From: Candidatus Latescibacterota bacterium | GTDB lineage: Bacteria > Latescibacterota > UBA2968 | Length of the DNA stretch: 64,000 nucleotides | Direction: 5' to 3' | Assembly (NCBI GenBank): GCA_965116885.1 | Contig: OZ220741.1 | Coordinates: forward strand, 1,024,001 to 1,088,000 | Shown here: positions 42,603 through 64,000 of the stretch, in pieces | Layout: each line of letters opens with the position of its first letter | Position numbering within the stretch: the stretch's first letter is position 1 | Notes under the pieces: generated by a model | What the model was told of the DNA's origin: nothing | What the model saw: the letters and a program-made list of their open reading frames with translations, nothing else | The model's database searches: none | Translations under genes and position numbers: made by a program

Positions 42603-44024
42603 ATGCCAAAACCAACAGACGTAAAAATCAAATCCGTCGCCACCTACTTCCTCCCCGTACAAACGCGCATCCCCTATCGCTTTGGCACCGAACAACTCGA
42701 CAGCGTCACCTGCGTCAGAGTCCGCATCGACGTCGAAGACCGGCGCGGCAACATTGCTTCTGGCTGGGGAGAAACACCCTTGAGCGCGCCCTGGGCATGG
42801 CCATCGCCACACCTCACGTATGCCATCAGAGAAACGGCCATGAAAAACTTCTGCCTCAAAATCGGACGCGCATGGGCAGATATCGACACAACGGGGCACC
42901 CCATAGAAATCGGCCACGCATTCCAGGAAAACATCCTCCCCAATCTCCTATCGGCCTTCAATATCGAACAACAAAACACCACAGGGGACATGCCCCGCCT
43001 ATCCGCACTCGTCTGCACATCGGCTTATGACCTCGCCCTGCACGACGCTTATGGCATGCTTCACAACATCGACATCTACGACACGTACAACGCAGACTTC
43101 ATGAACGCCGACCTCGCGCACTACCTCGACCCCGCCGACATCGACTACAACTTCTCCGGTCGCTATCCCGAAAACTATCTCATCCGCCCGCGACCAAACC
43201 GCCTGCCCGCCTGGCACGCCGTAGGCGGCAACGACCTCCTCGACGACGCCGAACGCACAGGCGATGAACCCGACGACGGCTATCCCGTAGTCCTTCCCGA
43301 CTGGATACGGCGCGACGGCATCACCTGCCTCAAAATCAAACTCACCGGACAAGAACCCGGATGGGATTACGACCGCATCGTCCACATCGGACAAATCGGC
43401 ATCGAAAACAACGCCATGTGGTTGTGTACAGACTTCAACTGCACCGTCCGGGAAGTCGATTACGTCAACGACATCCTGGACCGCCTCCTCACCGACCACC
43501 CGCGCATCTATCAAATGATCCTCTACGTCGAACAGCCCTTCGCTTACGAACTATCCGACAACCCCCTCAACGTCCACAGTATCTCTGCGCGCAAACCCCT
43601 CTTCATGGACGAAAGCGCGCACGACTGGCGCGTGATATGCCTGGGGCGGCAACTCGGCTGGACCGGCGTAGCCCTCAAAACCTGCAAAACCCAGACCGGC
43701 GCCCTGCTCTCCCTCTGCTGGGCGCGCGCACACGGCATGACACTCATGGTACAGGACCTCACAAATCCCATGCTCGCGCAAATCCCCCACGCCCTGCTCA
43801 CCGCCCATGCCGGCACCGTCATGGGCTTTGAAACCAACGCCATGCAATTCTACCCCGACGCCTCAATCCCCGAAGCCGCCATACACCCCGGCGTCTATCG
43901 CCGACAAAACGGTCACATCGACATCTCCACAGTCGAAGGACCCGGCTTTGGATACAAACACCATTTGATTGACCGCACACTACCCGAACCTGCTGACCAC
44001 CGATTCGTCTATGAACTGGCCTGA
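42603..44024 (+). CDS. Enolase-superfamily (mandelate racemase/MLE-like) protein
   Basis: KIK motif, DFN, EQP, DES, ALKTCK. Confidence 0.8.
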   Translation: MPKPTDVKIKSVATYFLPVQTRIPYRFGTEQLDSVTCVRVRIDVEDRRGNIASGWGETPLSAPWAWPSPHLTYAIRETAMKNFCLKIGRAWADIDTTGHPIEIGHAFQENILPNLLSAFNIEQQNTTGDMPRLSALVCTSAYDLALHDAYGMLHNIDIYDTYNADFMNADLAHYLDPADIDYNFSGRYPENYLIRPRPNRLPAWHAVGGNDLLDDAERTGDEPDDGYPVVLPDWIRRDGITCLKIKLTGQEPGWDYDRIVHIGQIGIENNAMWLCTDFNCTVREVDYVNDILDRLLTDHPRIYQMILYVEQPFAYELSDNPLNVHSISARKPLFMDESAHDWRVICLGRQLGWTGVALKTCKTQTGALLSLCWARAHGMTLMVQDLTNPMLAQIPHALLTAHAGTVMGFETNAMQFYPDASIPEAAIHPGVYRRQNGHIDISTVEGPGFGYKHHLIDRTLPEPADHRFVYELA

Positions 44025-44086: not shown

Positions 44087-44677
44087 ATGTCCTCACGCAC
44101 CGCACACATCCAGCGCAAAACCTCTGAAACCGACATCGACCTCACCCTCGCCCTCACGGGCACGGGAGAATCGCACATCGACACGGGCATTGGCTTTTTT
44201 GACCACATGCTCACAGCCCTTGCCCGCCACGGCTTATTCGACCTCACCGTCACCTGTAAAGGCGACCTCGAAGTCGATGCCCACCACACCGTCGAAGACG
44301 TCGGCATCTGCCTCGGTCAAGCACTATCTAACGCACTGGGCGACAAAGCCGGCATCGCGCGATTCGGCGCTGCGTACGTACCCATGGATGAAGCCCTCGC
44401 CCGCGCCGTAATCGATCTCTCTGGACGCGCACACCTGATCTATAACGCCGCATTCGCCGAAGAACGCATCGGCGCATTTCCCACGGCACTGGGCCTCGAA
44501 TTTTTCACCGCACTCGCGCACAACAGCCGCATGAACCTGCACATCGACCTCATCCGCGGCAACAACGCGCACCACGGCATGGAAGCCATCTTCAAAGCCG
44601 TCGCCCGATCCCTGCGACAAGCCGTCACCCTCGACAACAGAATCAGCGGCATACCCTCAACCAAAGGAAGCCTGTGA
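44087..44677 (+). CDS. hisB: Imidazoleglycerol-phosphate dehydratase
   Basis: FFDHML, DAHHTVED, PMDEAL, NAHH..E, PSTKG. Confidence 0.96.
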   Translation: MSSRTAHIQRKTSETDIDLTLALTGTGESHIDTGIGFFDHMLTALARHGLFDLTVTCKGDLEVDAHHTVEDVGICLGQALSNALGDKAGIARFGAAYVPMDEALARAVIDLSGRAHLIYNAAFAEERIGAFPTALGLEFFTALAHNSRMNLHIDLIRGNNAHHGMEAIFKAVARSLRQAVTLDNRISGIPSTKGSL

Positions 44678-45228
44678 ACGCAAAACCCGCAGCATTCATC
44701 GACCGCGACGGCACAATCAACATCGAGGTCCACTACCTCAACCGCGTGGAACAACTCCAACTCATCCCACGCGCGGGAGAAGCCATTGCGCGCCTCAACC
44801 AGGCCGGTTATCCCGTCATCGTCATCACCAACCAATCCGCCATAGGTCGCGGCCTGCTCACAGAAACCGGACTCTCTGAGATCCACCGCGAACTCAAACA
44901 TCAATTATCAGCCTACAACGCCTCCATCGACGCCATCTACCATTGCCCCCATCACGAAAAAGACAACTGCACCTGCCGCAAACCCGCGCCGGGCATGATC
45001 TTGCGCGCCGCCAATGAACACAACATCGACCTCGCGGGTTCTATCATGATAGGCGACAACGCAACCGACCTCGAAGCCGGATGGAACGCCGGCTGTCGCG
45101 CAGCCCTCGTGCGAACCGGCTCTGGCGAAGACGCCCTGAAAAAAATCGACCGACAAACGCGCGACCGCATAAGCTATATTGGCAACGACTTATTCGACAT
45201 CGTAAACTGGATGCTCACACATGCGTAA
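44674..45228 (+). CDS. gmhB: HAD-IIIA phosphatase, heptose-1,7-bisphosphate/histidinol-phosphate phosphatase family
   Basis: DRDGT, TNQS, CPH..CTCRKP, IGD. Confidence 0.85.
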   Translation: MNAKPAAFIDRDGTINIEVHYLNRVEQLQLIPRAGEAIARLNQAGYPVIVITNQSAIGRGLLTETGLSEIHRELKHQLSAYNASIDAIYHCPHHEKDNCTCRKPAPGMILRAANEHNIDLAGSIMIGDNATDLEAGWNAGCRAALVRTGSGEDALKKIDRQTRDRISYIGNDLFDIVNWMLTHA

Positions 45229-46642
45229 ATTTCCCCCCATAGACCTCTCCAAAGTCAAAACCCACGCGCTCTCGGAACGCGACAGCAAAGTCGCGCTCTC
45301 GGGATTTGCCACCCCTGCGCGCAGTGGCGCGTCCTTTGGCCATTTTCTCACCAGCCTGCCCGACATCTTAATCGGTGCCGACTTTCGCCAATTCGCGCGC
45401 CAACTCGCCCGTGCCATCCAGAACAAAAAAACCATCGCCATCGGCATAGGCGGTCACGTCATCAAATGCGGCCTATCCCCCGTAATCATCGACCTCATGA
45501 AACGCGGCTACATCTCTGCCATAGCCATGAACGGCGCCACAGCCATCCACGACATCGAAATCGCCATGCACGGACAAACATCCGAAGACGTCGCCCACGG
45601 ACTTCAAGACGGCTCCTTTGGCATGGCGCGAGACACCGGTGACTTTATCAACCACGCCATCAACGCATCAGCAGGCGGATACGGCAGCGCACTCGGCAAA
45701 AAAATCACAGACACAGACCTGCCACACCGCGACCACAGCATCCTCGCCCATGCCCATATATTAGACATACCAGCCACTGTACACGTCGCCATAGGCACAG
45801 ACATCACGCACCAGCAACCAGGAGTTAGTGGCGAAGCCATTGGCCGCGCGACCTTTGAAGACTTTCGCACCTTCTGCTCTGTCGTCTCCACCCTCGAAGG
45901 CGGCGCGTACCTCAACATTGGCTCTGCCGTCATCCTCCCCGAACTCTTTCTCAAAGCCCTCACCGTAGCCCGCAACCTCGGTCACACCGTCGATCACTTC
46001 ACCACAGCCAACTTCGACATGATCCAGCACTATCGCCCGCGCGTCAACGTCGTACAGCGCCCCACCATGCAAGGCGGCGAAGGCTACGCCTTTACCGGCC
46101 ACCACGAACTCATGATCCCCCTGCTCGCGCACGCGCTTACCTGCATGCTCGAAGCCCCTCCCCCCGACCACAAAATGATCACCCGCGAACGGGCCATCCA
46201 AATACGCAACCGCCTCAAAGACATCGGCGCAAAAGTCGTCTTCACCAACGGCTGTTTTGACCTCATCCACCGCGGCCACGTCACCTACCTCCAAAAAGCC
46301 AGCACACACGGCGAAGTCCTCTTCCTGGGCCTCAACACCGACGCATCCGTACGCCGTCTCAAAGGTCCTGATCGCCCCATCTTACCCCTCGAAGACCGCG
46401 CCGGAGTACTCGCCGCCCTCGAATGCATCGACTATATTATCCCCTTTGCCGAAGACACCCCCAAAAACCTCATAGCCGCCCTCTTGCCCGACGTCCTCAT
46501 CAAAGGCGGAGACTATCAACCCGAAGAAATCGTCGGACGCGAAGAAGTCGAATCCCACGGGGGCATTGTCACCACCATCCCCCTAATCGAAGGCCAATCC
46601 ACGACCAGCATCATCGAAAAAATTCGCGGAGGCAACACATGA
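45221..46642 (+). CDS. Fusion of a deoxyhypusine-synthase-like domain and heptose-1-phosphate adenylyltransferase (RfaE2)
   Basis: N-terminal GGHVIKCG/MNGA..IHD/IGTDI/GSAVILPE; C-terminal FTNGCFDLIHRGH..LNTDASVRRLKG..KGGDY. Confidence 0.8.
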   Translation: MRKFPPIDLSKVKTHALSERDSKVALSGFATPARSGASFGHFLTSLPDILIGADFRQFARQLARAIQNKKTIAIGIGGHVIKCGLSPVIIDLMKRGYISAIAMNGATAIHDIEIAMHGQTSEDVAHGLQDGSFGMARDTGDFINHAINASAGGYGSALGKKITDTDLPHRDHSILAHAHILDIPATVHVAIGTDITHQQPGVSGEAIGRATFEDFRTFCSVVSTLEGGAYLNIGSAVILPELFLKALTVARNLGHTVDHFTTANFDMIQHYRPRVNVVQRPTMQGGEGYAFTGHHELMIPLLAHALTCMLEAPPPDHKMITRERAIQIRNRLKDIGAKVVFTNGCFDLIHRGHVTYLQKASTHGEVLFLGLNTDASVRRLKGPDRPILPLEDRAGVLAALECIDYIIPFAEDTPKNLIAALLPDVLIKGGDYQPEEIVGREEVESHGGIVTTIPLIEGQSTTSIIEKIRGGNT

Positions 46643-47613
46643 CCCGGGACCGCCTCCGCGAAATACTCCATTCATTTTCCAATCGCCGCGTCACAGTCAT
46701 CGGCGACCTCATGCTCGACCACTACCTGTGGGGCATAACCAGACGCATCTCTCCCGAAGCACCCGTACCCATCGTCAATATCGAATCTGAAACCCATCGC
46801 CCCGGAGGTGCCGCCAATGTCGCTTATAACCTGCGCGTACTCGGTGCTCAGGTCACCGCTGCCGGCGTCATCGGGCAAGACCTCAATGGCGAACACCTCA
46901 AAACCGCACTAAACAAAGAAGGCATTGACCTCTCCGGCATAATCGAAACCCCACATCGCCCCACAACATCAAAAACGCGCATCATGGGACACACACAATA
47001 CCGACAACAACAGCAAATGATGCGCATCGACAGAGAAGTCGCCCTCCCTGTCACCGGCAAACTCCTCAACCAGCTCCGCGATGCCATAGCCCAGTCTCAC
47101 GCACCCGACGCCATCTTTGTATCCGACTATGCCAAAGGCGTCGTCACACCCGACCTCATGGACACCGTGCGCCGCAACACCTGCCCCATCATCGCCGATC
47201 CAAAAGGCCGCAACTTCGACAAATACCGGGGTGTCACCGCCATCTCGCCCAACCAATCTGAAGCACTCGGCGTATTTAACCTATACGATACCGACGAAAA
47301 AACAATCATCGACACCGGACATCGCCTCGTCAAAGAATACGAAATCGCACAGGTCTATATGACCCGCAGCGAAAAAGGCGTCGCTCTCTTTGAGACTGAC
47401 GGCCGCGTCACCCACATCCCGGCCACCGCCCGTCAGGTATTCGATGTCTCTGGCGCGGGCGACACCACAGCCGCAGTCTATACCCTTGCCCTCATCTCGG
47501 GCGCCTCACCCGCCGAAGCCGCGCATATAGGCAACCTCGCAGGCGGCATCGTCGTCGGCAAAGTAGGCGTTGACACTGTATCGGTTGACGAACTCACAAA
47601 CGCCATACAATAA
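46639..47613 (+). CDS. rfaE1: Heptose-7-phosphate kinase (RfaE1, PfkB family)
   Basis: GDLMLD, RISPEAPVP, GGAANVA, SDYAKG, DVSGAGDT; ATGA overlap. Confidence 0.9.
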   Translation: MTRDRLREILHSFSNRRVTVIGDLMLDHYLWGITRRISPEAPVPIVNIESETHRPGGAANVAYNLRVLGAQVTAAGVIGQDLNGEHLKTALNKEGIDLSGIIETPHRPTTSKTRIMGHTQYRQQQQMMRIDREVALPVTGKLLNQLRDAIAQSHAPDAIFVSDYAKGVVTPDLMDTVRRNTCPIIADPKGRNFDKYRGVTAISPNQSEALGVFNLYDTDEKTIIDTGHRLVKEYEIAQVYMTRSEKGVALFETDGRVTHIPATARQVFDVSGAGDTTAAVYTLALISGASPAEAAHIGNLAGGIVVGKVGVDTVSVDELTNAIQ

Positions 47614-47614
47614 C

Positions 47615-48715
47615 ATGAACATCTTACACACCCTATACGACGACATCGACAACCCCTGGTGTGGTGGGGGTGGTGCCCTGCGCACATGGGAAATAGCCCG
47701 TCGCCTGTCGCACAAACACCAGATCACTATTATAACAGGCGCGTATCCCAACGCACCCAGAGAAGAAACCCGAGAAGGCGTACACATCCGCCGCGTGGGA
47801 TCAGACCGCTCGTATCTCCGGAGCCGAATGAGCTTTGCCCACCACGCCTCCCGCGAAATCGCCCGCGCAAACACCGACCTGTGGGTCCATCAATTCTCTG
47901 CCTTTGCTCCCCTCTTCGTCTCCGCAAAAAAAAGACGCGACAGCCTCCTCGAATTCTTCCACTTCATGGACGACCACGCCATTGCAAAATATCCCGTGCT
48001 CGGCCACATTGCCCGAAAAGCCGAACAGCGCGCCCTGCGCCTTCACCCGCACATCCTGACCATCTCGCCCACCGTCACGCGCCAGCTTGAAAAACGCGCG
48101 ACAAACGCGCAATTTCACCTCGTCTATACCGGCGTCGATCAAATCTGTTTTGAAGCACCCTGGGCAGAACAGGACTACATCCTCTATTTTGGGCGCATGG
48201 ACATCCACAACAAAGGCATCGACATCCTCCTATCCGCCTTTGCCAAACTCAACGCACCCGACATCCGCCTCATCCTCTCGGGACGCGGAACCCCGCAAAG
48301 CAAACGCGAAATACGATCTCTCGCCAATCAGCTCAACATCGCAAACCGCGTCGAATTCACCGGCGCCGTCACACCCGAACAAAAAAATAGCCTCATGGGC
48401 CATGCCCTCTTTGTCTGCACCCCCTCGCGCTACGAAGGCTGGGGCATTGTCGCCATTGAAGCCGCAGCCGCTGCAAAAGCCGTCATAGGCACCGACATCC
48501 CCGGATTGGCAGATGCCATCCGCGCCGATGAAACCGGCCTTCTCGTCCCCCCCGAAAATCCCCAGGCACTCGCCAACGCCATGAACCGCCTGCGCAGCGA
48601 CGCCCTCCTGCGCAAACGCCTGGGAACAGCGGGCCGCAAATGGGCTGCACAATTCACCTGGGACCGCACGGCACAAGCGCAAGAAGAAGTCTATTTGAAA
48701 GTCGCCAATGACTAA
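47615..48715 (+). CDS. GT4 glycosyltransferase
   Basis: FGR..KG, EGWGIVAIEA, TGLLV. Confidence 0.9.
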   Translation: MNILHTLYDDIDNPWCGGGGALRTWEIARRLSHKHQITIITGAYPNAPREETREGVHIRRVGSDRSYLRSRMSFAHHASREIARANTDLWVHQFSAFAPLFVSAKKRRDSLLEFFHFMDDHAIAKYPVLGHIARKAEQRALRLHPHILTISPTVTRQLEKRATNAQFHLVYTGVDQICFEAPWAEQDYILYFGRMDIHNKGIDILLSAFAKLNAPDIRLILSGRGTPQSKREIRSLANQLNIANRVEFTGAVTPEQKNSLMGHALFVCTPSRYEGWGIVAIEAAAAAKAVIGTDIPGLADAIRADETGLLVPPENPQALANAMNRLRSDALLRKRLGTAGRKWAAQFTWDRTAQAQEEVYLKVAND

Positions 48716-54916: not shown

Positions 54917-54945
54917 TTGACATTTATCTCTATCTCCCTTATTAT
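54917..54945 (+). promoter_or_regulatory. Sigma70 promoter candidate
   Basis: TTGACA-17 nt-TATTAT. Confidence 0.55.
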
Positions 54946-54976
54946 TCTAAAAATAATAATTATTGGAAGAATAATA

Positions 54977-56383
54977 ATGAAATTCTACAATCGAGAAACA
55001 GAACTCGCACTCCTTCGAGAACTCACCGAAAGATCGGCGCAATATTCTCAATTCACCGCGATCTTTGGGCGCCGTCGCATAGGAAAAACAGAACTCGTGC
55101 GCCAGCATCTCCAGAACCGCGGCATCTATTTCTTTGTCGAAAAACGCCCCTCAAATGCGCTCCTCGCCGAATTTTCCGCCACCCTCAAATCGCACATTGC
55201 CCACGCGCCCGCATTCACAGATTGGAAAGACTTTTTCGTATTCCTCTTTGCCGAAACCCAACGCCACCCCCTGATCGTCGTCTTCGATGAATTTCAAAAC
55301 TTTCTCACCATCGAACCCGCCATCTATTCCATCCTCCAGAACGCGTGGGACACCTATCACAAACAATCCAGAATCCATCTCATCGCCATAGGTTCTGTCG
55401 TCGGCCTGATGAAAAAAGTCTTCCAGGACGCCAAAGAACCCCTCTACGGCCGCCTCACCCGGGAAATAGACCTCAGCCCTTTACCCATCGACGCCATCTA
55501 TCAAATCACCACAGACCTCGGCTTTCAATCGCCCACAGACATCCTGACCCTCTACGGCATCTTTGGCGGCATGCCCCGGTACTACGAAATCATAGAAAGC
55601 ATGGGCCTGGGCGGCAGCACCATCCCCCACATTCTCCATCGCGCACTGTTCACCCCCTTTGCCCCCTTTCGCAATGAAATGCGCGACATCATCCTCTCCG
55701 AATTTGGAAACACGGCCCACACCTATTTGGCAATTCTCGAAGCCATCGCCACGGGCAAAACCCGCCGATCTGAAATCGCAGGTCCCGCCGGACTACCAGC
55801 CACGAGCCTGTCCAAATACCTGCGCGAATTATCCGACCTATTCGACCTCATCGAACGCGAAGTACCCATCACTGAGCAATCGTGGAAAACAAAAAAAAGC
55901 CGCTATAAAATCCGCGACCCCTTTATCACATTCTGGATGCGATTCATCTACCGGCAATTGAGCATCTACGAATCGGGCAACTTCCCCTATTTTCTCAATC
56001 GCCTCGATACCTCCGTCTCGGAATTCATGGGCTTCGCCTTTGAAAACATCACGCGAGAACTCTTAATCCAACGCAACCACCACAACGCTGCGCCCTTCTA
56101 CTTTCACAGAATCGGACGCTGGTGGGACAGACAAAGCGAAATAGACCTCGTCGCCCTCAACCCCGAAACCCGGCAAACCCTCTTTGTAGAATGCAAATGG
56201 ACATCCTCCCCCGTTGGCACAGACGTCCTGCAAACCCTCAAACACCGCGCCCAAAACCTCCCAACCTCAGACGCTTTCTACCTCATCGCCTCAAAATCCG
56301 GATTCACCGACACCCTCAAAAACCTCCGAGGCTCACACCTTCACCTCTGGGACTCGAACGACATCGCGACATTTTTGATTTAG
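54977..56383 (+). CDS. Archaeal-type AAA ATPase with DUF234 and C-terminal PD-(D/E)XK-like domain
   Basis: FYNRETEL, GRRRIGKT, FDEFQ, GGMPRY, EIDLVA..ECKW. Confidence 0.88.
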   Translation: MKFYNRETELALLRELTERSAQYSQFTAIFGRRRIGKTELVRQHLQNRGIYFFVEKRPSNALLAEFSATLKSHIAHAPAFTDWKDFFVFLFAETQRHPLIVVFDEFQNFLTIEPAIYSILQNAWDTYHKQSRIHLIAIGSVVGLMKKVFQDAKEPLYGRLTREIDLSPLPIDAIYQITTDLGFQSPTDILTLYGIFGGMPRYYEIIESMGLGGSTIPHILHRALFTPFAPFRNEMRDIILSEFGNTAHTYLAILEAIATGKTRRSEIAGPAGLPATSLSKYLRELSDLFDLIEREVPITEQSWKTKKSRYKIRDPFITFWMRFIYRQLSIYESGNFPYFLNRLDTSVSEFMGFAFENITRELLIQRNHHNAAPFYFHRIGRWWDRQSEIDLVALNPETRQTLFVECKWTSSPVGTDVLQTLKHRAQNLPTSDAFYLIASKSGFTDTLKNLRGSHLHLWDSNDIATFLI

Positions 56384-56456: not shown

Positions 56457-57509
56457 ATGAAAACCCTCCTCGTCACTGGTTCATCGGGCCTCATCGGCTC
56501 AGAAGTCTGCATCTATTTTGCCGAACAGGGCTATATTGTCCACGGCATTGACAACAATCAACGCGCCGTCTTTTTTGGTCCCCAGGGAGACACGCGCTGG
56601 AATCAAAAGCGCTTAAACAACGTCCTAAAACACTTCCACCACCACGAAATAGACATCCGCGACCGTATGGGCATCTGCGAACTCCTGTCCCAAATAAAAC
56701 CCAACGCCATCATACACGCAGCCGCCCAACCCTCACACGACCTCGCCGCACGCATCCCCTTCGACGACTTTGACACCAACGCCGTCGGCACGCTCAACCT
56801 CCTCGAAGCCGCGCGTCAAACCTGTCCCGAATCTCCCTTCATCCACATGTCCACCAACAAAGTCTATGGCGATGCCCCCAACCACATTCCCTTAAAAGAA
56901 CTGGACACCCGCTATGATTACGACGACCCCGCGTACAAACACGGCATCCCCGAAACATTTACCATTGACCAGTCCAAACACTCGCTCTTCGGCGCATCCA
57001 AAGTCGCCGCCGACATCATGGTACAGGAATACGGGCGTTACTTTTCCATGCCCACCTGTTGCCTGCGCGGCGGATGCCTCACCGGACCCAATCACAGCGG
57101 CGTTGAACTCCACGGCTTCTTGAGCTACCTGATCAAATGCAACATGGAAAACCACACATACACCATCTACGGCTACAAAGGCAAACAGGTACGCGACAAT
57201 ATCCACGCCCTCGACGTCGCCCGTTTCATGTGGGCCTTTGTCCAATCCCCCCGATGCGGCGAAGTCTATAACCTCGGCGGCGGCAAAAACAACAGTTGTT
57301 CCATCCTCGAAGCATTCGATCTCGCTGCCCAATACTCCAACAAAAAAATGCAATACACCTATACCGACCAGAACCGCGAAGGCGACCATATATGCTATTA
57401 CAGCGACCTTCGCAAAATGAAATCGCACTACCCCGACTGGGACATCACAAAAACCCTCGAAGACACCTTTGCCGAAATTGTCTCAAGCTGGCAAAAACGA
57501 CTCATATAA
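56457..57509 (+). CDS. NAD-dependent epimerase (CDP-paratose 2-epimerase-like)
   Basis: [26 protein letters not shown]. Confidence 0.88.
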
Positions 57510-61597: not shown

Positions 61598-63175
61598 ATG
61601 AAAAAAAAACGCCGACAAAAAACGACCTCTACGTCCTTCGACCTCGCGCAATACGAACGCAAACCCTATTTTCTCGCCGCGCTTGGCCTGTGCGGATTGC
61701 TCATGGGCATTCTCCTCTTCGACGCCAACCTCTCCCTCACCGGCGACAACGCCCAATTCATCAACCTGGGTCGCTCTCTTGCAGAAGGGCATGGACTCTC
61801 GGAAACCATCGAAGGCGAACCCATCCCACACACCAAATACCCCTTTGGATTTCCGCTCCTCCTCGCCATTGTCCACATCCTCTTCCCCGCCAACCTCATC
61901 GCACTCAAAAGCCTCGTCGTCCTCCTCTACGCCATCTCGATCCCACTCACCTATCTCCTCATCCGCCGCTTTGCGCCTCCTCCCATGGCACTCGGCACAA
62001 GCGCGCTATGTCTCGCCTCTCCCCTCCTGTTGGATTACTCACACCAGGTCATGTCCGAAATTCCTTTTCTCCTATTTTCTCTCATCGCACTCCTCCTCCT
62101 CCACCGCGCACACAGTAACTCATCCACGAAGGTCACAAAGGACACGAAGGGGAAAAAACCTTTTCTTTTTCGTGTTTCTTTATGTTCGCTCCTTCTCGCA
62201 ATCATCGCCATCATCGCAGCCTACTACATCCGCAGCGCGGGCATCATCCTCATCGGCACCGGCATACTCTATTTTGCCCTGCACAAAAAATGGAAAGAAG
62301 CGGGCATCATCGCCACGGGCAGTCTCCTCCTCGCCCTGCCCTGGCAAATCCGCAACGCATCACTCGGTGGCACCCCCTATATCAAACAACTCCTCAGCAT
62401 AAACCCCTATCGTCCGGAAGAAGGCGCGCTCACATTCACCACGCTAATCGAACGCATCATTGTAAATCTCGAACTCTACGGCCTGCAAATCATCCCCTAC
62501 ATCTTCCTGCCCAGCTTTATCGACACCCACTACTTTGTCGGATCCGTCTTCTCCGCCCTGATCCTCTACGCCCTGATCGCCGGACTCATAAAACGGCACT
62601 TGCTCATCGTATATCTCACCTGCTATCTGACCCTCTACATCCTCTGGCCCGATATATGGACTGACACGCGCTTTCTCATCCCGGTCATCCCCATCCTTTT
62701 CTACACCATCCTCACCAGCCTGGACGAACTCCTCCACCTTCTCGCCCGAGCACTAAAAAAAACCGCCTCGCGCGCGGGTGTCGTATTCTTCTTTCTCTTT
62801 CTCCTCGGCTCAAATATCTTCGAGACCAACAACCTCGCCAAATACACCGGACAGTTACCTCTCGACTGGGCCAATTACTTTATCGCTGCAGAATGGATCG
62901 GAAAAAACACCGAACCCGATGTCAAAATCGCCTGCCGCAAGCCCTATCTCATGAACGCGATTGCCAACCGCAAAGCCACGAGCTACGCCTGGAAAACCCC
63001 GGATCAAGTCATTGCCGACTTTGAAAAAAACAGCATCGAAATCGTCGTTGTCGATCAGCTCGGATTCAGATCCACACCCGAATTTCTCATCCCCGCCATT
63101 GAGGCGTATAAAAATCGCTTTGAAATCATTCACATCGTACGCAATCCCGACACCTACGTCTTGACATTCAAATGA
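61598..63175 (+). CDS. GT-C (ArnT/GT39-like) membrane protein
   Basis: GDNA, YPFGFP, MSE, RFLIP; start at ATG 61598. Confidence 0.75.
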   Translation: MKKKRRQKTTSTSFDLAQYERKPYFLAALGLCGLLMGILLFDANLSLTGDNAQFINLGRSLAEGHGLSETIEGEPIPHTKYPFGFPLLLAIVHILFPANLIALKSLVVLLYAISIPLTYLLIRRFAPPPMALGTSALCLASPLLLDYSHQVMSEIPFLLFSLIALLLLHRAHSNSSTKVTKDTKGKKPFLFRVSLCSLLLAIIAIIAAYYIRSAGIILIGTGILYFALHKKWKEAGIIATGSLLLALPWQIRNASLGGTPYIKQLLSINPYRPEEGALTFTTLIERIIVNLELYGLQIIPYIFLPSFIDTHYFVGSVFSALILYALIAGLIKRHLLIVYLTCYLTLYILWPDIWTDTRFLIPVIPILFYTILTSLDELLHLLARALKKTASRAGVVFFFLFLLGSNIFETNNLAKYTGQLPLDWANYFIAAEWIGKNTEPDVKIACRKPYLMNAIANRKATSYAWKTPDQVIADFEKNSIEIVVVDQLGFRSTPEFLIPAIEAYKNRFEIIHIVRNPDTYVLTFK

Positions 63176-64000
63176 CCACCCGAGAAAAAATACTCATCTT
63201 CCGCCCCGATCACATCGGCGACCTGCTGCTCACCACGCCAGCGCTCTACGCCCTTCGCAAAGCAAAACCACACGCACACATCGGCATCCTCGTCAGTTCC
63301 TGGTCATCCCCGATCCTATCGGGAAACCCGGACATCGACGACATATTGATCTGCGACCTCCCCTGGCTCGACCGCGGTGAAAATCCCTCCTATCTACCGC
63401 TCTTGCCAATCATCCACCAGATCAGATCACAGCAATACGACCACATACTCAACTTTCGCATCGCCGCAAAAGCCGCCGCATTCTCTCGCCTGCTCGGCAC
63501 CAAAGAACGCTGGGGATTTGACGTCTTAAAATCGCGCTGGGCCTGGACACATGCCGTCCCTTATAATCCCAACCAGCATGTCGTAGATAACTACATGACC
63601 CTTGCGCGTGCATATACCCGCAGCGAAGACACACCCGTAAACTTCCGCATCTTTCCCGAAACAGCCGACCTGTCCGGCATTGACGAATTTATGCACAACA
63701 GCCCACCTGCCATTGTCCTCGGTGTCACATCTGGTCGCCCCGACAAATCCTGGCTCCCCGACCGCTGGGCAAAAGTTGCCGATCACATCGCCAAAGACGG
63801 CTTTCGCATCCTCCTCAACGGCGGACCCACAGAAGAAACAGACGTTCAGATGGTACAATCGCTCATGCACCATCCCGCAGAAAATCTCGTCGGTCGCTTT
63901 TCGCTGCTTCAATTCGCCGGACTGCTCAAACGCTGTGCTGCCATCATCACACTCGACTCATTTCCCATGCACCTCGCAGCGGCCCTCGGCATCCCAACCA
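63172..64000 (+). CDS. GT9 heptosyltransferase (partial, runs off window end)
   Basis: Manual translation MTTREKILIFRPDHIGDLLLTTP..KSW..DSFPMHLAAALGIP. Confidence 0.88.
   Translation, partial: MTTREKILIFRPDHIGDLLLTTPALYALRKAKPHAHIGILVSSWSSPILSGNPDIDDILICDLPWLDRGENPSYLPLLPIIHQIRSQQYDHILNFRIAAKAAAFSRLLGTKERWGFDVLKSRWAWTHAVPYNPNQHVVDNYMTLARAYTRSEDTPVNFRIFPETADLSGIDEFMHNSPPAIVLGVTSGRPDKSWLPDRWAKVADHIAKDGFRILLNGGPTEETDVQMVQSLMHHPAENLVGRFSLLQFAGLLKRCAAIITLDSFPMHLAAALGIPT

Follow-up and report, generated by a model that had tools for sequence, protein, structure and literature searches.

The synthesis of adenosine diphosphate (ADP)-heptose, which donates sugar to the cell surface, is regarded as a solved five-step pathway, and a gene that joins one of its enzymes to a domain from elsewhere raises the question of what that domain does there. 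Such a gene lies in a stretch of 64,000 nucleotides from a Candidatus Latescibacterota bacterium (assembly GCA_965116885.1, contig OZ220741.1, positions 1,024,001 to 1,088,000), which is called the window here. It encodes the heptose-1-phosphate adenylyltransferase RfaE2 behind a domain of the GSU2086 family, whose fold resembles that of deoxyhypusine synthase (DHS). A preliminary description of the window proposed that this domain either replaces the isomerase GmhA or carries out a modifying step dependent on nicotinamide adenine dinucleotide (NAD). In this study, we believed that the DHS-like fold, the exclusion of hldD, the need for larB, larC and larE and the fusion to an adenylyltransferase are best read together as a nickel-pincer-dependent heptose C6 epimerase that stands in for HldD, and we consider this prediction, on balance, probable.

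Both halves of the gene were recognized by curated models. The N-terminal domain matched NCBIfam NF052581 (GSU2086_dom) with 411.9 bits (cut-off 250) over model positions 1-301 of 301, and the C-terminal domain matched TIGR02199 (RfaE domain II) with 194.4 bits (cut-off 181.5) and has the HxGH motif; the joining of a DHS-like domain to RfaE2 in one frame is therefore confirmed. The nearest relatives of the protein (92-95% identity) are also from Candidatus Latescibacterota. The fusion was present in 13/80 related loci, which were fetched with up to 6 kb on each side of the family gene and which, where fused, are all Latescibacterota; this recurrence rules out an assembly artefact. When a fusion was called by both models matching one open frame, it was found in 14/121 Latescibacterota genomes. 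In a tree made by a quick method, which served to sort subfamilies and not the order of events, the fused sequences fell into one nine-row clade with one unfused row. HldE joins an RfaE2-type domain to a kinase, whereas the window protein joins RfaE2 to the GSU2086 domain. The window domain is a full-length member of NF052581, is likewise associated with genes for a kinase, an adenylyltransferase and a phosphatase, and differs by its fusion to RfaE2; the GSU2086 gene stands alone in 67/80 loci. The fusion as such is lineage-specific and of modest interest.

The family is large: a 50%-identity library has 1,171 of its representatives with E below 1e-30. A heptose-synthesis gene was found near the family gene in 29 of the 80 loci; 15 of these 29 do not belong to the 15 closest loci (L008-L021, L071). 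A heptose or lipopolysaccharide (LPS) marker was found in 41/80. The 150 top-scoring representatives from a profile search were inspected for fusions; 23 of them were at least 400 amino acids long, and 16 of these 23 had a partner of heptose-pathway type (RfaE2 in 7, a whole HldE in 1, SIS in 3, HAD/GmhB-like in 4 and a kinase in 1). RfaE2 was the commonest partner and occurs on either side of the GSU2086 domain, which indicates more than one fusion event. In Geobacter sulfurreducens, GSU2086 sits between gmhA and hldE. These neighbours, the fusions to pathway domains and the Geobacter position support the earlier suggestion that this uncharacterized family acts in nucleotide-heptose synthesis. 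A different arrangement, with two tandem GSU2086 domains, was seen in Paenibacillus-type proteins some 660 amino acids long (P0003 and about 60 others like it).

The replacement of GmhA was the first option examined. According to it, the domain isomerizes sedoheptulose-7-phosphate in a genome without canonical gmhA, and canonical gmhA was indeed not found in the window's genome, where the best TIGR00441 score (108.7 of 209.45) belongs to a divergent SIS protein far from the locus; a gmhA copy near 200 bits was present in just 1/14 fusion-bearing Latescibacterota genomes (G097). However, canonical-scoring gmhA was found in 5/5 Bacteroidota carriers tested (188-197 bits), gmhA-type genes (178-198 bits) lie directly upstream of the family gene in L115, L116, L117 and L131, and many proteins join the domain to one of SIS/GmhA type. 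A GmhA-like SIS protein was kept in 14/14 Latescibacterota genomes with the fusion, and in Geobacter, gmhA and GSU2086 are neighbours, each with a phenotype of its own in the published rows described below. No GmhA model was found among the 14 NCBIfam matches of the fusion protein at E up to 0.1, and GmhA structures ranked 23-24 in the fold search, with Z 9.4-9.5 against 20.6 for the top match. On co-occurrence, adjacency and fusions, we rejected this option, which we regard as barely credible. The profile comparison of the family with gmhA, suggested in the preliminary description, showed coexistence, and it is hldD, not gmhA, that is excluded. The likeliest isomerase for the window's heptose cluster would be the divergent SIS protein, which keeps both histidines and has Asp and Glu where the aligned canonical GmhA has Glu and Gln. 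In the window's genus, the GSU2086 family and the divergent SIS were missing from the same 4/20 genomes, and RfaE2 was present in only 6. In the Latescibacterota genus g15, a stand-alone RfaE2-type gene was found in 19/19 genomes, with 15 lacking a GSU2086 gene and 15 lacking a GmhA-like gene.

The gene that the GSU2086 family excludes is hldD, and the distribution of the two is nearly exclusive. In the Bacteroidota sample (251 genomes of the phylum of G123), GSU2086 and hldD were found in 23 and 127 genomes, respectively, and no genome had both. In a subset of 61 of these genomes, taken as one class and chosen afterwards by regular spacing in the sample, 22 had GSU2086 only, 39 had hldD only, and none had both or neither. 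In the Desulfobacterota sample (151 genomes of the phylum of G121, Desulfoluna), the numbers with GSU2086 only, hldD only, both and neither were 94, 26, 8 and 23, respectively, and one of the 102 GSU2086 carriers was a partial match at a contig end. In Latescibacterota, GSU2086 was found in 92/121 genomes and hldD above the cut-off in 0/121. An anti-correlation seen inside one Latescibacterota genus was discarded as a threshold artefact, the 160-bit matches being generic uridine diphosphate-sugar epimerases (L088, L091). The simplest reading of so clean an exclusion is that both enzymes carry out one net reaction, and we consider it likely that the domain catalyzes the HldD-equivalent epimerization. 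HldD (RfaD/GmhD, TIGR02197) is unrelated to it in sequence and fold (short-chain dehydrogenase/reductase, SDR, versus DHS-like) and probably differs in cofactor; no SDR or TIGR02197 match to the fusion protein was found in Pfam/NCBIfam-type profile searches.

The domain might also need the nickel-pincer cofactor and perform another hydride-shuffling step that makes HldD dispensable in some other way, for example by epimerizing a heptulose phosphate or a carbon other than C6, or by making or salvaging heptose-7-phosphate with the divergent SIS. Divergent subfamilies adjoin SIS, PfkB-type kinase and HAD genes without RfaE2 (L092, L093), and the shared absence of family and divergent SIS in the window's genus, the altered SIS residues and the frequent SIS fusions fit such a step. 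The simplest meaning of the hldD exclusion and the presence of canonical-scoring gmhA in the Bacteroidota carriers argue against it, and we think this explanation unlikely, although not negligible. The window's genome also has a second, stand-alone GSU2086 paralog of a different subfamily (39% identity). In this genome (C1), the scattered genes for SIS (4051571), the second paralog (2525999), PfkB (1495811), HAD (612963) and a GalU-like protein (104587) are orthologues of the SIS-HAD-GSU2086-PfkB operon of L092 and may form a second heptose-type module, which was retained in genus members without RfaE2. For want of a nucleotidyltransferase, the second paralog might be thought restricted to sugar phosphates, but the GalU-like gene weakened this argument; with that nucleotidyltransferase available, the scattered module may also act on a nucleoside diphosphate sugar, which again speaks against another step. 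Divergent GSU2086 genes also adjoin a LarA homologue and a GalU-like gene in L090:2068-7039 and L106:5320-10495, which connects them locally with an established family of nickel-pincer enzymes.

The structure of the domain was modelled from a 90-sequence alignment with a mean predicted local distance difference test (pLDDT) value of 95.2. The best fold matches were the AgrE C-terminal domain (Z 20.6, root-mean-square deviation (rmsd) 3.5, 220 aligned), DHS (Z 18.9-19.5, rmsd 3.6-3.7, 255-266 aligned) and 3c2q (Z 19.4), and much lower matches were sirtuins (Z 12.5) and GmhA (9.5). Foldseek ranked DHS first, with a template modelling (TM) score of 0.56-0.65, and a PDB sequence search gave weak matches only. 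The DHS likeness noticed earlier thus held in fold (Z 19-21) and was weak in sequence, where the DHS families scored below all curated cut-offs (PF01916 23.2 of 27, NF002630 22.1 of 364 and TIGR00321 19.6 of 304). The domain shares the fold of DHS (PF01916) and differs from it by an identity of 11-17% and by its heptose gene context. Compared with TIGR00300, an ornithine cyclodeaminase family, HHalign of the GSU2086 profile gave a probability of 96% over 144 columns with H-D-x-E in common: H110, D111 and E113 align with H240, D241 and E243 of TIGR00300, and are kept in 119, 118 and 120 of 120 family sequences, respectively, and in 34/34 TIGR00300 sequences. TIGR00300 and the ArgZ/AgrE C-terminal domain (6LRF, 6JUY, 3C2Q) are the top fold match and have the larC association as well; TIGR00300 has N-terminal domains that the GSU2086 domain lacks, and the GSU2086 domain stands in a sugar-phosphate gene context. 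Matched against TIGR00300 as a whole protein, the domain failed (22.4 of 410.8 bits, amino acids 57-120 only). The cyclodeaminase uses the nickel-pincer adenine dinucleotide non-covalently, as PMC13524815 states in describing Desguin 2025 (Int J Biol Macromol 330:147799). According to the same article, LarA racemases/epimerases and NphT also work by nickel-pincer hydride transfer, NphT on sugars; their folds differ from that of the GSU2086 domain.

The conserved residues in alignments of the domain are H79, K82, H110-D111-x-E113, T120-S-E122, H188, D214, K245, D266, R272, R280 and H295. As far as sequence conservation goes, the four histidines (H79, H110, H188, H295) and the two lysines (K82, K245) are kept at 91-99% across the family. 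Such a density of invariant His, Asp, Glu, Lys and Arg, together with the hldD exclusion and scores far below the DHS cut-offs, argues against the suggestion that the domain is non-catalytic, serving in nucleotide sensing or as a scaffold, or that it is a DHS-type polyamine- or protein-modifying enzyme merely travelling with heptose genes. Fusions to every pathway enzyme and the 39/80 loci without a heptose or LPS marker are what this suggestion would explain, and we consider it very improbable. A second uncharacterized DHS-like family (406-415 amino acids) was noticed directly after kdsB at L108:936-2180 (+) and L109:1255-2472 (-). The L108 protein had no Pfam match, and larC lies 1.3 kb beyond its gene. 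The family had no NCBIfam match at 1e-20, and its Atlas cluster has 3704 members, commonest in Synergistota; it may be a nickel-pincer enzyme in the synthesis of Kdo (3-deoxy-D-manno-oct-2-ulosonic acid).

The genes for the nickel-pincer cofactor follow the GSU2086 family in two phyla. In the Bacteroidota sample, larC was found in 23/23 carriers compared with 6/228 non-carriers. In the Desulfobacterota sample, larC was found in 102/102 carriers, and of the 15 larC-negative genomes none carries GSU2086 and 13 have hldD. In Latescibacterota, larC was present in 118/121 genomes and in 89/92 carriers, and because it is near universal there, this phylum is uninformative for the larC link. The window's genome encodes larB, larC, larE and two LarA-like genes.

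Published transposon sequencing (Tn-seq) of G. sulfurreducens (PMC5585712) bears on the same link, as far as Table 1 and selected rows of Table S2 go; the values are log2 fumarate/parent and electrode/parent. Among heptose genes, gmhA had +1.77/-3.69, GSU2086 +1.50/-3.19, hldE +1.01/-3.07 and gmhB +1.53/-1.73. The putative lar genes behaved similarly (GSU0140 +1.91/-2.16, GSU0141 +1.90/-2.32, GSU0536 +1.45/-2.57), as did the nickel transporter (nikMN +1.61/-2.02, nikQ +0.73/-1.57, nikO +0.94/-1.71). Seven of these genes (gmhA, GSU2086, hldE, GSU0140, GSU0141, GSU0536 and nikMN) are among the 39 genes of Table 1, with +1.0 to +1.9 in fumarate outgrowth and -2.0 to -3.7 on electrodes. The LPS-core genes GSU2251-2257 were likewise fumarate-enriched (+1.7 to +2.9). 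The controls GSU3295 (-0.36/-0.12), hypB (-0.66/+0.60), hypA (+0.84/+0.51) and cooS (-0.42/-0.34) lacked the pattern, and so did the upstream adjacent glycosyltransferase GSU2088 (+0.27/+0.04). The authors stated that their terminator-free cassette gives read-through that relieves polarity. An hldD gene is not among the 13 Table S2 rows named epimerase. GSU0140, GSU0141, GSU0536 and GSU3295 were assigned as larB, larC, larE and the LarA homologue, respectively, by gene order and lengths rather than by direct sequence: in genome G212, larB (249 amino acids)-larC (390 amino acids)-pgpA-cinA matches the order and lengths around GSU0140/GSU0141, cysK-larE matches GSU0536, and flavodiiron-LarA-glcD-glcF matches GSU3295. 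In these rows, three unlinked lar/nik loci share the heptose-gene pattern and the LarA homologue does not; the cofactor genes therefore matter, their known client LarA does not, and their pattern is that of the heptose genes.

The larC link and the Tn-seq pattern make the nickel-pincer nucleotide a more likely cofactor than plain NAD, and we consider it very probable that the domain uses it. Of the NAD-dependent step first proposed, a dinucleotide-dependent modifying step still fits best, with plain NAD the less likely cofactor. It could be argued that the domain stands in for HldD with ordinary NAD+, like DHS, and that the larC link comes from shared ancestry and habitat. In fold, DHS and the cyclodeaminase are equally near, and no larC match was found in 12 of the 50 unfiltered genomes examined behind the related loci (50 of 80) or in 3/92 Latescibacterota carriers. 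Against this stand the Bacteroidota larC counts and the behaviour of the three lar/nik loci beside that of LarA in Geobacter, and we regard an ordinary NAD+ enzyme as quite improbable.

HldD acts by transient oxidation at C6, DHS uses NAD, and each of the two removes a hydride and returns it. LarA and the cyclodeaminase likewise remove a hydride and then return it (PMC13524815). For the proposed nickel-pincer-dependent epimerase, we suggest that the domain would do the job of HldD, from D-glycero- to L-glycero-D-manno-heptose, in lineages without hldD. The cofactor would be made by LarB, LarE and LarC, probably in the adenine-dinucleotide form as in the TIGR00300 ornithine cyclodeaminase. It would accept a hydride from the C6 alcohol to leave a bound 6-keto intermediate and give the hydride back on the opposite face, so that the redox state is unchanged overall; the candidate substrate is ADP-heptose or a heptose phosphate. 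In the window's genome, RfaE1, GmhB and the fused RfaE2 would turn heptose-7-phosphate into ADP-heptose, the epimerase domain would receive ADP-D,D-heptose from its fusion partner, and the genome's one glycosyltransferase of family GT9 would put the product on a surface glycan.

Several observations weigh against this prediction. On the side of the reaction, 8/102 Desulfobacterota carriers also have hldD, five with a main-type gene (L114-L118) and three with divergent copies (L111-L113). A heptose kinase was found in 4/5 tested genomes with neither GSU2086 nor hldD (3 above the cut-off), the hldD searches scored only 8-16 candidates per genome, and the Fisher P values of 1e-8 to 1e-27 overstate the significance, as the genomes are kin. 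The fusion partners span all four heptose-pathway steps, so that fusion alone does not tell which step the domain performs. On the side of the cofactor, the three Latescibacterota genomes without a larC match (G114, G005 and G019, 89-91% complete) are GSU2086 carriers, larC was found in only 38 of the 50 unfiltered genomes, with both archaeal genomes lacking it, and the hidden Markov model and fold scores differ little between DHS and the cyclodeaminase. Of 10 carriers tested, 8 had LarA-type genes, four as weak matches, and the lar genes can therefore have other clients. As for Geobacter, the pattern was taken from the selected rows, the lar defects were milder than that of GSU2086, larB-larC lies upstream of the essential pgpA, insertions in hybL also lose on electrodes (-0.16/-1.48), and the unrelated regulator GSU0013 shows the same pattern.

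The features around the fusion are listed in Table 1. The gmhB, fusion and rfaE1 genes are attached to the end of a his operon, and the order hisB-gmhB-fusion-rfaE1-GT4 is common to 7 related loci. The placement of the fusion between gmhB and rfaE1, which overlap it at both ends, with a GT9 gene downstream, was confirmed. The GT9 gene starts 16.5 kb downstream of the fusion, is the sole PF01075 match in the whole genome and is the probable consumer of ADP-heptose.

Table 1. Heptose genes and other features in the window, with the evidence for each assignment.
Feature	Position	Strand	Basis
hisB, imidazoleglycerol-phosphate dehydratase	44087..44677	+	Final his gene ahead of the heptose genes
gmhB, heptose-1,7-bisphosphate phosphatase	44674..45228	+	NF006506 183.8 bits, cut-off 178; directly after hisB, overlaps fusion start
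Fusion gene: GSU2086-family domain, short Pro-rich linker, RfaE2 adenylyltransferase	45221..46642	+	Single open frame, 473 amino acids, no internal stop
GSU2086-family domain, DHS-like fold	45236..46135 (amino acids 6-305)	+	NF052581 411.9 bits, alignments, model pLDDT 95.2, fold searches
RfaE2/HldC heptose-1-phosphate adenylyltransferase domain	46205..46627 (amino acids 329-469)	+	TIGR02199 194.4 bits, motif H350-R-G-H353
rfaE1/hldA, heptose-7-phosphate kinase	46639..47613	+	TIGR02198 343.9 bits, cut-off 345; ATGA overlap with fusion stop
GT4 glycosyltransferase, probable ATG 47615	47570..48715	+	PF00534; opens run of glycosylation genes
NAD-dependent epimerase/dehydratase, not HldD	56457..57509	+	TIGR02197 43.8 bits, cut-off 274.6
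GT9 heptosyltransferase-family gene, 333 amino acids, runs past window end	63172..64000	+	PF01075 127 bits

That the window lacks gmhA and hldD, as first described, was also borne out, and the absence of canonical versions extends to the whole genome, which is a single contig and 98% complete. The search for hldD in this genome gave a best TIGR02197 score of 115.6 of 274.6 (L003), and this match and the epimerase gene in the window were both rejected as HldD. LpxC was not found in the window's genome and four genus relatives (0/5 genomes tested), and LpxK and LpxL queries had no tblastn match in the window's genome. The heptose is therefore probably not destined for canonical LPS; judging from the downstream glycosyltransferases, the acceptor may be a glycan of the surface or of proteins. 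Despite the missing LpxC, the genome has a KdsB-like gene. The gmhB gene, directly after hisB and with a next best genome homologue at 30% identity, may double as histidinol phosphatase. A 473-residue enolase-superfamily protein is encoded at 42603-44024 between hisC and hisB in the his operon and is kept in 6 related loci, and an archaeal-type ATPase/DUF234 gene at 54917-56383 breaks the run of glycosylation genes, where relatives have other insertions nearby.

Few scaffolds are known to use the nickel-pincer cofactor, namely LarA homologues, an ornithine cyclodeaminase and NphT, and hundreds of genomes have the cofactor genes but no known client (PMC13524815). Heptose, DHS and Geobacter do not occur in the main text of that article, nor heptose and GSU2086 in 12 of its 17 supplements. 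In the literature searched, in which subscription journals were mostly out of reach, no function was proposed for the GSU2086 family, and no work was found joining deoxyhypusine synthase with heptose or nickel with a non-orthologous heptose epimerase; GSU2086 appears there as a table entry in PMC5585712. The present analysis adds the combined HldD/nickel-pincer interpretation, the larC counts in Bacteroidota and, together with the controls, the mutant pattern in Geobacter. We put at slightly better than even the chance that proteins of the GSU2086 family are widespread sugar epimerases that depend on the nickel-pincer cofactor and have a new role, in which the HldD step is performed by a second, unrelated type of enzyme. 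The hypothesis is directly testable in the genetically tractable and non-pathogenic G. sulfurreducens, where, if true, it would account for four unexplained entries in the list of genes for electrode growth. The family would then fill the hldD gap in whole phyla and give larBCE an envelope function, which would explain why many genomes keep these genes, and a salvage route for heptose may be served by the divergent subfamilies. Cell-envelope heptose would be nickel-dependent in much of Desulfobacterota, part of Bacteroidota, Latescibacterota and several candidate phyla.

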